From positions 32,001 to 96,000 of the IMG/VR virus record IMGVR_UViG_3300021431_000087: a stretch of 64,000 nucleotides of DNA. One strand, 5' to 3'. The notes beneath the pieces are model-generated. The model made no database searches. It saw only the letters and a program-made list of their open reading frames with translations, and had not been told where the DNA came from. The translations under genes and the position numbers were made by a program. Origin of the DNA: a virus (lineage: Duplodnaviria; Caudoviricetes). Positions 31,801 to 63,432 of the stretch are shown piece by piece. Every line of letters starts with the position of its first letter. The first letter of the stretch is position 1.

Positions 31801-33648
31801 TTTTGATTGTTTTTCGGCTTTCTTGGCTTCGGATGGAGTGACAAACTTTACTTCAACACAAGCCGACCACCCGTCATCCCAATGGTAATAAAAGCGACCC
31901 TCTTTGAGATTGGGATAAATAGGTTTACCTCTCATGGTAGCCGTGCAAGTCATCGCATAAAAACGACCTTCACCACTCCATTTCCCGTTCCAACTACCCA
32001 CACCAGGCATGGTAAGGATAAAAAGAGCTTTTGTCTTCTTTTCTTCTTTCATATTATCATTTCTTTTCAAATTTCTCACACGGCTTTCCATATAATGGTG
32101 CGCAATAGAACAAGCCATTTTCTTCCTTCGGTTTCAGTTCGCATACCATTGTATCATAGTACTGTCGTCTGAAGGTGCGCCCTTTGACCCTATGCTTGCA
32201 GTCCTTACACCGGTATTCGTTCGGTGCAAGCTTTTTGCTCTTTCGCTTGTACACTACCACCGTCCTGCCGACAATCTTTGCCGTGCAATCATCTGGGATA
32301 GTGTATTCTCCTTCTTTCAAGTCATCCCGCGTAGGCTCTTCTTTCATATCAAAGGGATTGTACGGCATATCCTCTTCTCTTACACCTGCCGCCTTGCAGA
32401 CACGATAGACGACCTCGTCAAGGCTCGCACATTTGGGATTGGAATAGATGCCCCACGCTTTCGCACAGTCGGCACAATCATCATTTGTTATGCCGTCTAT
32501 GGCTTTGCCAGCAATATCAGCCTCCCACAGTCTCTTAAACTCTTCCTTTGTGTAAACCATATTTTATTCTACTTTATAAAGATAACATGTTTCGTCTGCC
32601 GTCGTGATGAACACCACATCGGGAACGACAAGGTTGAAAACCATTCTATTGAAGGTCTGAATATACGTTGCCCTCGGTTTTATCTCCCCTTGGGTTATCT
32701 GCTTTACTATCGGCTGATATATGCTGCCCTTACGGAAAACATAAAGCGACTTCAACAAATCCTTTGCCTTTGCCATACACTTCTACTTTTTAAACAGACC
32801 AATCTTTATCATTATAATGGCAATACACCTTGTTCCCTTCCGTTCCATTGCAATATTTGCAAGTGTCACAGTTCTTTCTTTTTAATGTGCAACTGTCTGC
32901 CACTATTCGAATTCGACGCATTTTCATATATCAATCCTCCAATTCTACTTCACGACTACGCATGATGTTATGGATAGCTTCTCGGCACTCTTCAGTGTCG
33001 GCCTCCATAATAAGCCTGCGGAACGTGCTCCTGTAGGTGGTCTCGTAGGCTTGCTCTAACAATTCTTTGTCCTTTTCTGTCATAATTCAAAATATATCTT
33101 GTTCGTCTACTGCCATCCCATCGTGGATGAGCCCCATAAAGTCGAACTTGCGCTCACAAAGCCATTTTACACGTTTAAAGGACGGAGTGCTTGCAAACAT
33201 ATCCAAATCCCCGTAATGAGGTAATTTTGCGTATTCTTTACGCTCTTCTATTGTCATGCTCTCCATCGTCCGAAGTATAGGTTTCACAAACTCTACGTGA
33301 AAATGCTGCGTGCCAAGGAATGCCTTCTCGCCTATAGGCACGCACTCTACCGAGCCACGATACACATCTATGGATTGCAACTTACAAGGAAACTCCTGAA
33401 AGTCGTGCTTGACCTTCAAGCCGTAGGGCGCATACAAGCATAAGGCAGAAAGTCTCTCCCTAATCTCTTCCTTTGTCATTTTCTTCGCCCTCTCCTTCTA
33501 TTGTTAATATTATCAATATTGTGGCTACACTTTTCGCATGGGTGATAGCCAGATTCGAACCAATTCCACCCCTTATACCGAGTGCATTGCTCGATAACTG
33601 GGAACACTTTACATTTATATGAATCGTCCATAATTTTTATTTTTCAAT

Positions 33649-59090: not shown

Positions 59091-59585
59091 TTAAGCATCT
59101 GCAAACACCTTCCCGTCATCAAGTGTTACTTGCAATTTCGTGTACTCACAATGGAATCTTTCTTTTAGTTTCCAAAAATAACGCCTACACGCCAACTTGC
59201 AGGCTTGCAGGTCATGAAGAAGATAGTTGCCACATGTCTCTGGTGTTGTGGCGGGCACTTCCTCTTGCTCGCTTATCCACCGTAGACACTCCATCGTCAG
59301 ATAGCGCATTTTCTCTACATCATATCCTTTGCGCATGATAACGTACATTCCCGTCAAGCACCCCATCGGGCCTACATAAACCACGTCATCCTTTACCACG
59401 CTATTCCTGAACCACGTAGCCATCAAGTGCTCGATGCTGTGCATGGCCGCAGGAGCGATGGCAGGCTCCTTGTTCGGCTCCGTGAAACGAAGGTCAAAGG
59501 TCGTAAAATCCTTATCCTCACGGGAAACATATATCCCCGGCTTCAACTTTGTGTGGTCAATCGTAAAACTTGCTATCGCTTCCAT
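59091..59585 (-). CDS. luxS: S-ribosylhomocysteine lyase (AI-2 synthase)
   Basis: SFTIDH, HSIEH, GPMGCLTGMY, CGNY..H. Confidence 0.95.
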   Translation of the reverse strand: MEAIASFTIDHTKLKPGIYVSREDKDFTTFDLRFTEPNKEPAIAPAAMHSIEHLMATWFRNSVVKDDVVYVGPMGCLTGMYVIMRKGYDVEKMRYLTMECLRWISEQEEVPATTPETCGNYLLHDLQACKLACRRYFWKLKERFHCEYTKLQVTLDDGKVFADA

Positions 59586-60211
59586 ATTCTATTCTTCTAA
59601 AGTTTTAACCCAAACTGTGCAACTGTTGTCATCCATACTGGTTAAATGCTTGTAGTAAAACGTACGTTCCACCACTCTATACCACTCTTGCTCCAACCTT
59701 ACGGACTCTCCGACGTTCGGAACAACGGGACTGTCCTCCGTATGGAAAATCACATATTCCGAGTCTGGGTCTTGAAAAAATACTCTCATATCTTATAAAT
59801 CATGTTCTGCCAAATACTTTCTGCTCCATCCCTCGAAGGCATCGATATTCTTGAACTTCGGATGCGCCTCTATCACATTCCCGTCAAAAGTCAACGTTCC
59901 GGCCTCCGCTCCTATGAAGCAATACTCAAAGCGTGATGCGTTCTTGCTGAATCCCAACTTGTAAACGGCATATATATCTCCATTTTCCTTCCTGTCGAGG
60001 TGCGCATGAGGTGTGCGCATATTTCTCGTTGCTGAAACTCTATGAAATCCCATATTTTCTCTTTTTCGACAAAGATACGAATAAACATCGAGAAAACAAC
60101 AAAAACTATGCTAAAGTATCTTATTGTAGGCATTTTTTGGCGATGTGTGCTAACAAAAGATAGTTAATACTAAACTGTGATTTTATATTTGAACGTTAAA
60201 TAGTTTTATGT

Positions 60212-60219
60212 TATCTTTG
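60212..60219 (+). promoter_or_regulatory. Bacteroidota -7 promoter box for the RAMP-array operon
   Basis: TATCTTTG with upstream TTTG (-33-like); divergent box at 60070-60077. Confidence 0.7.
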
Positions 60220-60274
60220 TGTCGTATTTAGTAAACGCCGCAAGGCATAGTAATAACAATTTATAACAGCGTAT

Positions 60275-60844
60275 ATGAAAACGTTAAAATTCCAAATTAC
60301 GGGTACACGGCCTTTGATGCTGAATAACCCGCGAACTGTCAACCCATTTGACAAGTATTCAAAACTATTGAAGCCGCTGACGAGCAAGCGCACCAAGACC
60401 GAGGACGACCTCATGGAGATTTCCCGCCTCAAGTTCCTTGCCAGTTTGTACGTTGACGAAAAAGGTTATTTCCTCCCTCAGGAGTGCATCGAGCGTAGTA
60501 TTATCGAAGCCGCCAAGGAGCGCAAACTCGGCAAGAAGTTTGAGCGCAGTTTCAACGTTATCGACCGTGCACCGCTTGACTTCAAGGACAACAAAAAGAA
60601 GCCTGAGCAACTTTTCGATATGGGTAATATGTACGTCGATGTCCGAGCCGTAGGCATCAAGAACGCTCGTATCACCACCACACGCGCCATCATTCCGAAC
60701 TGGAGTGCCACCTTTGAGTGCTGGTTTGACGAAACCCAACTTGACGAGAAGGAGGTGCTTGACGTGTTGGAGATTGCTGGTCTTCGCTATGGTGTCGGCA
60801 CGTACCGCCGCCTCTACGGACGATTCTCTGTGAAGAAGATTTAA
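60275..60844 (+). CDS. RAMP/Cas7-like RNA-binding protein (stand-alone, phage-encoded)
   Basis: N-terminal FQITGTRPLML, YFLPQECIERSI (IP-x-S-like) and C-terminal Gly loop GVGTYRRLYGRF; adjacent periodic RNA array. Confidence 0.65.
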   Translation: MKTLKFQITGTRPLMLNNPRTVNPFDKYSKLLKPLTSKRTKTEDDLMEISRLKFLASLYVDEKGYFLPQECIERSIIEAAKERKLGKKFERSFNVIDRAPLDFKDNKKKPEQLFDMGNMYVDVRAVGIKNARITTTRAIIPNWSATFECWFDETQLDEKEVLDVLEIAGLRYGVGTYRRLYGRFSVKKI

Positions 60845-60855
60845 CGCTTCATATT

Positions 60856-61443
60856 TGCAGAGTAGTATAGCAATGCGTAGAAGAACTCCCGTGACGGATT
60901 CCTTGCCGTGGTTCGACCCCACGGGCGGGAGCTATTCTCAGCTAAGTTTAGTAGAGCCTTGTGTAGACGAGACGAGTTTTGTTTAGCAAAGTTATGCGCA
61001 GTTTAGTTAAGACGAACTCCCACAATGGTTGTATGTAAGGTTCGATTCCTTCAGTGGGAGCATTTAGTCCAGATTCGTAAAGCACAGTGGAGTGTAGTAC
61101 AGTATGGCTCAGTTGAGAGAAGTTTAGTTCAGACCTGTACAGCAAAGACGAACTCCTATCATGGTGCAAGCATCGGTTCGATTCCGATGGTAGGAGCAAA
61201 AAGTTAAGTTCGGATTAGCAGAGTCCAGCGAAATATAGTTTAGCAGAGTAAAGAAGAACCCTCACTATGGTACAAGCCGTGGCTCGATTCCACGGGTGAG
61301 GGCAAAAAGTCCAGCAAAGACCAGTATAGCGAAGTGGTGTCTTGTATGGCTATGCAAAGCCATCCAAAGTTTAGCAAAGAACGGTTAAGTAAAGACGAAG
61401 GCAGTAACGGTTCACGTTGGGGTTCGATTCCCCGAACTGCCCA
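60856..61443 (+). ncRNA. array of 5-nt-periodic guide-like tracts separated by five mini-tRNA-like hairpins
   Basis: Tracts 60940-61014, 61066-61150, 61202-61256 and 61308-61397; hairpins 60886-60931, 61017-61060, 61153-61196, 61259-61302 and 61400-61441. Confidence 0.85.
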
Positions 61444-61473
61444 AAATGTTTAACATTTAAAACATAAGCGAAT

Positions 61474-61947
61474 ATGGAGAATAAAAAAGAATTGACGGCA
61501 GAGGTGCTTAATCCTCTGATGGCTGAAATAGCCGAAAAGTTTGGTGACGGTGCGCTCATTCCTCACGAATGGCTGCGCAAGAAGTTCGACATCAAAGATC
61601 CTTCAATGGCTGACTGCGAAAGCGAAGAGGACTTTATCGCCAGACTGCGTGAGCAGCAGTTCCTCTATATGGGGTGCATCGACCAACTGCGATGGGCAAT
61701 GCTTCAGAAAGAGCAAATGTACCTAAAGAACGAGTGGGGTGACGGATATTCCATCCTACTGCCAACAGAGCAGGTTTCTTTCGGCTACAACGAGTTTGTG
61801 AAGACCATCAAGAAAGCCACTAAAGAAGCGGATGCCATCATCAATAATGTGCGCCCCGTTCCCGACATCAACGCTGCGAAAGACAATGACATTCGTGCAA
61901 GGTTCGGGATGATGCGTGATATGCTGGCAAGCATAAAGAAAAGATAG
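61474..61947 (+). CDS. hypothetical partner protein of the RAMP-array locus
   Basis: Co-directional with the RAMP gene and array; LKNEWGDGYSIL resembles a wHTH wing. Confidence 0.6.
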   Translation: MENKKELTAEVLNPLMAEIAEKFGDGALIPHEWLRKKFDIKDPSMADCESEEDFIARLREQQFLYMGCIDQLRWAMLQKEQMYLKNEWGDGYSILLPTEQVSFGYNEFVKTIKKATKEADAIINNVRPVPDINAAKDNDIRARFGMMRDMLASIKKR

Positions 61948-61980
61948 AATAGTTAATGTTAATTTGTACATATTTTGGCA

Positions 61981-62012
61981 AGCCTGTCCGTGATGGATAG
62001 GCTCTGCTTTTT
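61981..62012 (+). terminator. intrinsic terminator closing the RAMP-array operon
   Basis: AGCCTGTCC-GTGAT-GGATAGGCT followed by CTGCTTTTT. Confidence 0.65.
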
Positions 62013-63432
62013 ATAGAAAATCTGACAATATTTGATCGTCAGACGCACCGCCTACAACCCCTCCTCTTTCAATAATCATCGTAAGGACATCTTCTGCGTC
62101 ATCATGTGCATTTCTTCCTTCCTTTCGGTAACTTTTCACGGATGAAGCGAACTCTGGCCATCGACGTTCCCAATCCACAGGAAATACAATCATATTGTTT
62201 ACTTCACAAGCCCTTGTGAAGATTCTGACATTTTTGTTGTGGTGCTGCGTGAAAGTAATAAAAGTCGTTTTGTGGTTTTCGTACTCACGACTTATACGTT
62301 CCACGTTTCTGGCAAAAGCCCTGCCTCCATTATTTGATTCAATGACACAATACCTTATCTCATATTTCGCTAAATCCTGCGCCAACATTTGTTCCGTTGC
62401 CTCTTGGCTTTTCTTTGTGTATATAACACTCGTCACGTAGTATCCATCTTTCATTGAAAGGTAGGTTATGCTACACAAATAATCCTCGCCAACATCTGCG
62501 GTGTCGCAACAACAGCACATTGTCCCCAGCTTGACGGGAGGTAAAACTTCATAAGTACGAAATGCGTGCTCATAAAGCAAGCCTTCTAAAGGCATAGGAT
62601 TTTGTTGGTATTGTGTTTGAAAAACATACGAATTGGCAGCATTTATCTTATCAAGTTCCTCAAGTGTATGCTTGTATGGCCACAGTGCTTCACGCTCTCC
62701 GTTCTCGTTTATCTGTATAACTGGCAGTGATATCACCCGCCACTCGTCTGGTTCTATTTCCTGCAAATAGCCGCAGAGGTCATGCTCATGCAAACGCTGC
62801 ATGATAATGATAATGGGTGTGTTACGGGAATTGACGCGGTTTCTGATTGTTGTTTCAAAACGTCGGTTCACACGCTCACGGACAACATCGGAAAGGGCAT
62901 CCTCCGGCTTGATAGGGTCATCGATAATGATCGCGCCACCAAAACGATACGGTTCACATTCCCTTTCGACAAGACCAGCACCGAAACCCGTAATCTGACC
63001 GAGCGTAGATGTGGCGTACAAGCCACCTCCTTGGTCGGTTTCCCACTGAGATTTCATATTCTTTCCGTAGGTGATACGGGTAGGATAGAGCCGTTGATAT
63101 TCTTCGTTTTGAACTATATTTTTTACGGCAATAGAGTTGTCTTGTGCAAGGTTGGCAGAATAAGAGAGGTGGATGAATTTGGCAGAAGGATTGACGGCTA
63201 ACCCCATAGCAATGAAGTTCTTTACTGCAAGTTCCGTTTTTCCATACCTCGGCGACAAATTAATAATAAGTTTATTACATTTTCCGTTAAGGACATCATC
63301 AAGGGCATCACAGATAAGCTTGTGGTGCCTGCCTATGATGAACTTCATGTCGTTGTTCTGCTTGAAGAAGTACCTTGTGAAGTTAAGGGAACTCTTCAGC
63401 GTCCAAGCCCTCAAAATGTCCGTGTCTGTCAT
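62011..63432 (-). CDS. terL: terminase large subunit
   Basis: Walker A SPRYGKT, IIIDDPIKP, MQRLHEHDL, YQQNP, ESNNGG, HDDAED. Confidence 0.95.
   Translation of the reverse strand: MTDTDILRAWTLKSSLNFTRYFFKQNNDMKFIIGRHHKLICDALDDVLNGKCNKLIINLSPRYGKTELAVKNFIAMGLAVNPSAKFIHLSYSANLAQDNSIAVKNIVQNEEYQRLYPTRITYGKNMKSQWETDQGGGLYATSTLGQITGFGAGLVERECEPYRFGGAIIIDDPIKPEDALSDVVRERVNRRFETTIRNRVNSRNTPIIIIMQRLHEHDLCGYLQEIEPDEWRVISLPVIQINENGEREALWPYKHTLEELDKINAANSYVFQTQYQQNPMPLEGLLYEHAFRTYEVLPPVKLGTMCCCCDTADVGEDYLCSITYLSMKDGYYVTSVIYTKKSQEATEQMLAQDLAKYEIRYCVIESNNGGRAFARNVERISREYENHKTTFITFTQHHNKNVRIFTRACEVNNMIVFPVDWERRWPEFASSVKSYRKEGRNAHDDAEDVLTMIIERGGVVGGASDDQILSDFL

Follow-up and report, generated by a model that had tools for sequence, protein, structure and literature searches.

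The 64,000 nucleotides of the viral record IMGVR_UViG_3300021431_000087 that were analysed here (positions 32,001 to 96,000, one strand; hereafter the window) belong to a 124-kb phage of Bacteroidales type and carry, as judged from their sequence, a VIPR (Viral Interference Programmable Repeat) operon with a promoter, the gene vipr, five guide genes, a partner gene and a terminator. Each guide gene ends in a short element that reads as a structured mimic of the top half of a tRNA, maintained by covariation, and it is highly probable that these units constitute the 3' modules of the guide RNAs (vrRNAs) and adopt this fold. Taken as a whole, the arrangement is best explained as a VIPR guide array whose tRNA-like 3' modules are cut by host tRNA enzymes, an explanation that we consider probable, if by no means assured.

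The tRNA-like units and their fold

Between the stop codon of vipr and the start of the partner gene lie 629 non-coding bases, which parse fully into five modules, each of them a pentamer tract followed by a hairpin element of 43-47 nt. The coordinates and lengths of these units are counted through the discriminator C, and the scores are those of a cmsearch with the covariance model described below:

60886-60932, forward strand: unit 1, 47 nt, with a linker of 13 nt; 55.8 bits, E 1.3e-11; minimum-free-energy fold identical to the model
61017-61061, forward strand: unit 2, 45 nt, with the weakest T-stem (4 bp and 2 mismatches); 58.2 bits, E 2.8e-12
61153-61197, forward strand: unit 3, 45 nt; 63.2 bits, E 1.3e-13
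61259-61303, forward strand: unit 4, 45 nt; 66.3 bits, E 1.8e-14; minimum-free-energy fold identical to the model
61400-61442, forward strand: unit 5, 43 nt, terminal type with a 6-bp acceptor starting with G, an ACGG linker and 12 stacked pairs; 57.5 bits, E 4.3e-12

The outer, acceptor-like stems of units 1 to 5 comprise 7, 7, 7, 7 and 6 bp. They are followed by a linker of 11-13 nt that begins N-A-Y-G-G and replaces the D- and anticodon arms, and then by a 6-bp inner, T-like stem that closes a 7-nt loop, TTCGAYY (CTCGATT in unit 4). All five have AGA(A/C)GAA on the 5' side and a C on the 3' side. The original prediction, made from the DNA letters without database searches, had placed five elements at these positions, with stems of the same lengths, an AYGG linker, a YTCGAYY loop, AGA(C/A)GAA in front, a C behind and no anticodon arm, and all of these features are indeed seen in the sequence. 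Acceptor and T-stem together stack 13 bp (7+6) in units 1-4, 12 bp in unit 5 and 11-13 bp in the units of other loci; the subtype of unit 5 recurs in the viral loci L001 and L008 and in the actinobacterial locus L132.

Common annotation tools do not report the units. ARAGORN returned 0 tRNA genes in the window, where no cloverleaf with D-arm and anticodon arm is found, and an Rfam scan of 59500-62500 (E<=10) gave no tRNA, hammerhead or other family above threshold. Among the sub-threshold Rfam matches, the one of unit 5 to the tRNA-like mascRNA (E=1) is kept as a hint of tRNA-likeness, and those to BTnc049/SmY in the terminator region and, on the opposite strand of unit 3, to a plastid leader are treated as chance.

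The case for the fold rests on comparison. A covariance model with 13 base pairs was built from a seed alignment of the five window elements and two from a related viral contig. On both strands of the 64-kb window it finds only the five units (E 1.8e-14 to 1.3e-11), and beyond the window it gives 73 further matches in 80 related viral loci and 27 in 25 loci from prokaryote genome assemblies. All of these lie on the vipr strand, and those in the viral loci stand, with the exception of two weak matches, directly downstream of a vipr homologue. The search of homologous loci that had been proposed as a check on the hairpins has thereby been made, with about 100 further units, always beside the homologous gene and on its strand. 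Among 34 distinct sequences from the viral loci and the window, 97.9% of the cells at model pairs are paired, compared with 44-50% when the partners are slid by 1-3 columns; 24 distinct sequences from the genome loci, none of them in the seed, reach 93.9% (39-52% when slid) and have the inner stem paired in 100% of the cells. In each set 12 of the 13 pairs have changed on both sides, so that the covariation claimed at the outset, stems that differ in sequence while their pairing is kept, is borne out twice. Single-unit folding energies are only modestly beyond those of shuffled sequences (z -0.9 to -2.35), and folding of the whole array as a single sequence is uninformative (z = -0.9); the support for the fold therefore comes from the comparison.

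Some letters hardly change at all. The linker GG keeps a constant spacing to the acceptor stem and occurs in 32/34 distinct sequences, the T-loop G-TTCGA-(T/C)-T-C in 33-34/34 and in all 24 of the genome-locus set, and the discriminator C in 30/33. These conserved letters are those of tRNA G18-G19, of G53-T54-T55-C56-R57-A58...C61 and of the discriminator position, and the linker GG could by analogy make the docking contact with the T-loop that G18-G19 make in the elbow of a tRNA.

Guide tracts, Vipr and the operon

VIPR systems have been described in 2026 preprints (PMC13142463; 10.64898/2026.04.26.720927). In these systems one Vipr protomer binds each pentamer of a vrRNA with 9-16 YNNGG repeats, recognition of double-stranded DNA goes through the NN bases and skips one base in between, which usually falls on the codon wobble position, and the tract is followed by a conserved 3' tail, which in SUSP1 is a pseudoknot that caps the filament. 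VIPR silences competing phages and satellites, and its known array variants are staggered, interspersed with hammerheads, or single guides (same sources). The tracts of the window have the corresponding anatomy:

60846-60885, forward strand: tract 1, 5 canonical NNNAG pentamers and a terminal AAGAA
60933-61016, forward strand: tract 2, 4 nt and 16 pentamers (15 guide repeats and a terminal ACGAA)
61062-61152, forward strand: tract 3, 18 pentamers
61198-61258, forward strand: tract 4, 12 pentamers
61304-61399, forward strand: tract 5, 19 pentamers, whose NN series spells a motif of the terminase large subunit (TerL) of other phages

The five tracts hold 8, 16, 18, 12 and 19 pentamers that end in G, mostly NNNAG (equivalent to AGY/NN), in exact phase. 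Counting upstream from the element, one arrives at whole multiples of five for tracts 3, 4 and 5, with a remainder of 1 nt for tract 1 and of 4 nt for tract 2. The fixed triplet is a variant of GGY with A or R at the first G. Tract 1 is below the published number of repeats and may be a vestige.

The position of the units relative to the tracts assigns them to the guides. In 51 distinct units, a G stands at -6, -11 ... -56 from the first base of the unit in 73-80% of the cases, and no pentamer phase is found downstream of them. In 21 loci, vipr is followed by 1-5 repeats of tract and unit and then by 15-62 nt (15-30 except in L062) to the ATG of the next open reading frame; no unit precedes the first tract, and what comes after the last unit is a gene and not a guide. 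As the register is locked to the 5' end of the unit, and as the array starts with a tract and ends with a unit, each unit is to be read as the 3' module of the tract before it, i.e. as the counterpart of the published tail. The hairpins had been predicted to act as punctuation of the array, and this part needs correction, since the units are not neutral but belong to the upstream tract.

The 189-aa product of the gene upstream of the array is, by homology, the Vipr protein and is thus predicted to bind one pentamer per protomer. Its family profile matches the Protein Data Bank (PDB) entry 36pp_D, "SUSP1 Vipr protein", over the full length (E 1e-43), and the single sequence matches the same chain over residues 1-187 (E 1.1e-28); 36pp is the sole solved structure matched by the profile. 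An AlphaFold model (AF2; predicted local distance difference test score, pLDDT, 94.5) has Csm3 and Cmr4, Cas7-type RAMPs, as the nearest solved folds. The thumb Arg and the aromatic-Arg pair of the G-loop are conserved, and the contacts to G2 and the pyrimidine are kept from SUSP1 to the window (thumb R138 = R137, W178 = Y177, R179 = R178). The first-G readers of SUSP1, H17 and D177, correspond to N17 and T176, and this replacement, which fits the use of AGY/RGT in place of GGY, is a possible specificity switch. On the grounds of the homology to the SUSP1 protein, the RAMP fold, the exact 5-nt phasing of the tracts and the published anatomy of tract and 3' tail, the system is identified as VIPR, with AGY/NN instead of GGY/NN. 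The idea of an RNA-guided array with units between guide tracts and without a Cas6-like gene has held, but not its placement as an unknown CRISPR analogue. No family of CRISPR-type direct repeats (~25-40 nt, with contiguous spacers) was found, and Vipr is the one RAMP present.

For at least one tract, reading it as a guide leads to the terminase gene of another phage. For the target search in IMG/VR, the NN dinucleotides were joined with one wildcard base each for the skipped position. The first 10 NN of guide 5 match exactly (20/20 bases) in 32 viral contigs (L085-L116), and in all 31 contigs that are readable through the site these bases fall within the TerL motif NPKP[IM]EGLMY, in the reading frame of the gene and with the wobble position skipped. 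Looping out one repeat gives 32/34 matching bases in 19 contigs, and by the one-base-skip rule the guide spells NPKP[IM]EGLMY..KFKTYK of the TerL of other viral contigs of 30-60 kb; no full-length match of at least 80% was found without the loop-out. The TerL of the 19 contigs with the loop-out match is 55% identical to that of the phage itself and is one residue shorter exactly at the target site; a relative with a terL as long as the resident one is therefore probably the true target. Such a same-length target was not found with an IMG/VR pattern for the second half of the guide, nor with a 13-dinucleotide pattern, which had no match in metagenome contigs; the two IMG/VR matches of the second half are AT-rich, out of frame and not terL, and were set aside as chance.

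The phage's own terL site for guide 5 (62549-62601, reverse strand) is the homologue of the target motif in the other phages; it matches at 26/36 bases, with 10/36 mismatched, and is no better than shuffled guides. Self-targeting was rejected, both for an amidoligase gene and for terL, as the best own-genome matches, 24/34 for guide 3 and 26/36 for guide 5, equal the best of 50 shuffled guides. The authors of the VIPR preprints likewise found that own-genome matches were not above shuffled guides in their systems. Guide 5 thus looks like a case of inter-phage targeting of a packaging gene with self-avoidance. For guide 3, no exact 10-dinucleotide match occurs in IMG/VR, and the sole amidoligase relative fetched (94% identical) gives the same 24/34; no target is assigned to it. 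Guides 2 and 4 were compared only with locus L119 and with the phage's own genome, which they match no better than shuffled guides do.

The genes and signals that surround the array are the following:

60184-60191 and 60212-60219, forward strand: two Bacteroidetes-type -7 motifs (TAnnTTTG), promoter candidates by consensus match only
60275-60844, forward strand: vipr, 189 aa, RAMP/Cas7-like, phrog_4652, homologous to SUSP1 Vipr
61474-61947, forward strand: partner gene (vap-like), 157 aa, phrog_5926, starting 31 nt past unit 5
61981-62013, forward strand: terminator-like hairpin with T run, 3' of the partner gene, the probable operon end

The pair of -7 motifs upstream of vipr is a possible operon promoter; TAnnTTTG is barely enriched across the window (63 found, 48 expected), and a scan for sigma-70 promoters, the consensus of which is wrong for Bacteroidota, stayed at chance level. 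No terminator-like site was found in the interval from vipr to the partner gene. With promoter motifs upstream of vipr and the only terminator-like hairpin after the partner gene, the array is probably transcribed within an operon of vipr, array and partner gene. Loci with tRNA-like units have a homologue of the partner gene behind the array: of the 45 fetched loci with a match, 44 have it there, on the vipr strand, and one (L069) has a weak match upstream of vipr. The partner protein, a putative vap product, matches nothing in Pfam or the PDB. In two more distant relatives, L003 and L063, the partner homologue directly abuts vipr. In L063 (3560-3860), where Vipr is 43% identical, an uninterrupted GGT/NN tract of ~250 nt, in which the motif TCAGAGG recurs, and a strong terminator come after the adjacent vipr and partner genes; this may be a staggered array.

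The 124-kb phage contig encodes a terminase, and its relatives stem from Bacteroides, Duncaniella, Prevotella, Dysgonomonas and Alistipes bins; GenBank phages gave no DNA-level similarity match for the window. The phage also carries a LuxS (S-ribosylhomocysteinase) gene at 59091-59585 on the reverse strand (Pfam E 4e-45), adjoining a metallophosphoesterase gene.

Proposed processing by host tRNA enzymes and other explanations

How might such modules function in guide maturation? We propose that host enzymes that mature tRNA ends would read the modules and divide the polycistronic transcript there. The cut of RNase Z would fall behind the discriminator C, so that the next guide, or the partner-gene mRNA, receives its 5' end, and RNase P may cut at the 5' side of the unit; both cuts together would yield single guides from one vipr-array-partner transcript without a Cas6-like nuclease. 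What points to such a reading by tRNA-end enzymes is the fact that only the universal recognition features of tRNA, i.e. elbow, T-loop, stacked helices and discriminator, are invariant. That at least one host tRNA enzyme processes the units appears reasonably likely to us, whereas a removal of the tail from the mature guide by RNase P is put forward more tentatively, and a cut at the 3' side only, with the tail retained, is quite possible. An RNase P cut at 60886 and the equivalent positions would remove the tail, and one side or both may be cut. The units do not encode CCA. The three tRNA genes of the phage (Asn-GTT, Met-CAT and Ser-GCT; G000 107580-107910, reverse strand, outside the window) do not encode it either, and their trailers are A-rich like those of the units, the trailer of the tRNA-Ser gene, CAAAAAGG, resembling the sequence after the units. 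It follows from established tRNA biology that the host has to generate the 3' ends of these phage tRNAs with an endonuclease and to add CCA.

Several observations weigh against this proposal. The metatranscriptome evidence (four runs) consists of assembled contigs over vipr that reach at most position 60933 and reveal neither transcription nor RNA ends, and no meaning attaches to the uncovered part. The SUSP1 tail is retained and caps the filament (10.64898/2026.04.26.720927), and a retained tail would be equally consistent with the strict register that tract and unit keep. The internal units stack 13 bp (7+6), compared with 12 in tRNA. The first pair is C-G in 25/34 sequences, and an A stands at -1 in 86% of 51 units; C1 and A-1 are suboptimal for bacterial RNase P. 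Finally, the junction, A(A/C)GAA and then C across the unit border, is clade-specific and is for this reason more likely read by Vipr than by RNase P.

What alternatives exist for a processing by tRNA enzymes? The unit could be a retained handle that caps or nucleates the Vipr filament, with the tRNA shape serving as a compact, nuclease-resistant fold and another nuclease separating the guides, and host tRNA enzymes would have no essential share in it. We regard this as rather unlikely. In its favour, published tails are retained and cap the 3' end, filament assembly has been seen to proceed from the 3' end in SUSP1, where the tail makes the vrRNA competent for Vipr complex formation, the register of tract and unit is locked, the junction motif before the unit differs between subclades, and the 13-bp stack and the C1/A-1 context also favour a retained cap. 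However, a handle specific for Vipr would be expected to drift, and the invariant letters are exactly those of the universal tRNA elbow and T-loop, across Viprs that are only ~35% identical. One such case is the actinobacterial prophage of Piscicoccus intestinalis (L132:1100-1450), where GGC/NN tracts lie upstream of vipr and the units are of the unit-5 subtype, with a G-start acceptor and an ACGG linker; Bacteroidota and Actinomycetota loci thus share the same unit features. Moreover, free acceptor/T-arm minihelices that carry a single-stranded leader are among the classical substrates of RNase P, and a retained handle of this kind would need protection to escape the enzyme. A further argument comes from a sister clade (L043-L061, rumen-type contigs, e.g. 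L047:3100-3560) with Viprs that are 51-55% identical and a different gene of ~65 aa downstream. Its AGY/NN tracts are split by a 13-nt unstructured motif (consensus GTTATATCCAAAC), and in a quick tree the clade is nested among lineages with tRNA-like tails, with a support of 100 in the Shimodaira-Hasegawa-like approximate likelihood ratio test (SH-aLRT); the order of tail gain and loss remains tentative with such a tree. A structured tail would then be dispensable for this Vipr lineage, and as the nested clade makes do with a 13-nt separator, this favours a processing role over a filament handle. GC-rich relatives have a hairpin-type tail of ~55 nt, short motifs or staggered tracts.

The units could also be mainly cassettes that permit a swapping of guides by homologous recombination, the RNA fold being secondary. 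A bovine metatranscriptome contig (run X3) is 99% identical through the 3' end of vipr and unit 1 and switches exactly at 60933 to a different RGY/NN tract, which suggests an exchange of guide cassettes at the unit border, and related loci have different tracts between near-identical units. However, the stems covary, and the units within one array differ in their stems, which reduces recombination between them and shows that pairing, and hence the RNA, is under selection, and we therefore consider recombination as the main role very improbable. Phages often carry tRNA genes, as does this one with three, and the units might accordingly be decayed tRNA genes or remnants of integration sites without present function. 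This is hardly credible, as D-stem, anticodon arm and variable loop are missing from all copies through an identical, precise deletion, as 94-98% of the cells are paired with compensatory changes, which contradicts the view of a remnant, and as the units stand in a fixed phase with guide tracts and occur only beside vipr, on the vipr strand.

A processing by host tRNA enzymes may also be carried to its full consequence. If RNase P and RNase Z cut on both sides, tail-less guides would be coated by Vipr without a handle, and free 45-nt mini-tRNAs would result that receive CCA and could have a role of their own, e.g. as decoys or sponges of host defence factors that bind or target tRNA. The array would be a natural counterpart of engineered tRNA-gRNA (guide RNA) arrays, and the occurrence of one module in phages of both Bacteroidota and Actinomycetota would point to an old, widespread mode of guide maturation that predates Cas6. 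This larger scenario is speculative, and we hold it to be doubtful.

Relation to known systems

The closest known systems are the type II VIPR of the Escherichia phage SUSP1 and of a Pseudomonas fulva prophage (10.64898/2026.04.26.720920 = PMC13142463; 10.64898/2026.04.26.720927; 10.64898/2026.10.15.759431). They share with the window a homologous Vipr and a small partner gene, 5-nt repeats of three fixed and two variable bases, a conserved 3' module of ~40 nt, several guides in a row, and targets in other phages with the skipped base on the codon wobble position. The window differs from them in the triplet, which is AGY (RGT across the clade) and not GGY, in the position of the array between vipr and the partner gene, and in the tail, which mimics a tRNA top half and is not a pseudoknot. 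The vrRNA arrays of VIPR types I and V that are interspersed with hammerheads (fig. S19 of PMC13142463) also have a structured module between the guides and no dedicated protein nuclease, but while the hammerhead cleaves itself, the units of the window have no ribozyme signature in Rfam and would rely on host enzymes. Among the non-canonical VIPR repeats that were obtained with a genomic language model (10.64898/2026.10.21.760802: WGT/NN, TGH/NN, GAC/NN and others), AGY/NN and RGT/NN fall within the WGT/NN type reported next to Vipr-like folds, and the term "tRNA-like" has 0 occurrences in that paper.

VIPR itself is thus already published, and the design with a tRNA-like tail is unmentioned in the texts of the VIPR papers examined: the word "tRNA" is absent from the text of the three VIPR papers and a supplement, figures and data tables aside, and the authors may have seen the tails. 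Among the papers searched, none combines vrRNA with tRNA-like elements.

Transcripts punctuated by tRNAs or tRNA-like folds are known from animal mitochondrial polycistrons, from MALAT1/mascRNA, from the tRNA-like/pre-miRNA genes of murine gammaherpesvirus 68 and from engineered polycistronic tRNA-gRNA arrays, and in all of these RNase P and/or RNase Z act at the tRNA(-like) fold and define the ends of adjacent RNAs. While these systems are eukaryotic, organellar or man-made, the window contains a natural guide array of a bacterial virus, with a mimic that has no anticodon arm and with a putative cutting.

VIPR has been proposed to be older than CRISPR, and the maturation of its guide arrays is hardly described. 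In the lineage considered here, the separator is swapped between tRNA-like, short linear motif and pseudoknot-like forms while the protein stays the same. If the proposed mechanism is true, a tail that borrows the host tRNA processing would explain how a system of two genes turns a single transcript into many guides. The tRNA-gRNA arrays of genome engineering would then have a precedent in nature, and VIPR guides could be multiplexed in other hosts by a simple design rule. The units moreover provide a sharp landmark, searchable with the covariance model, for VIPR arrays and guide boundaries in gut phages.

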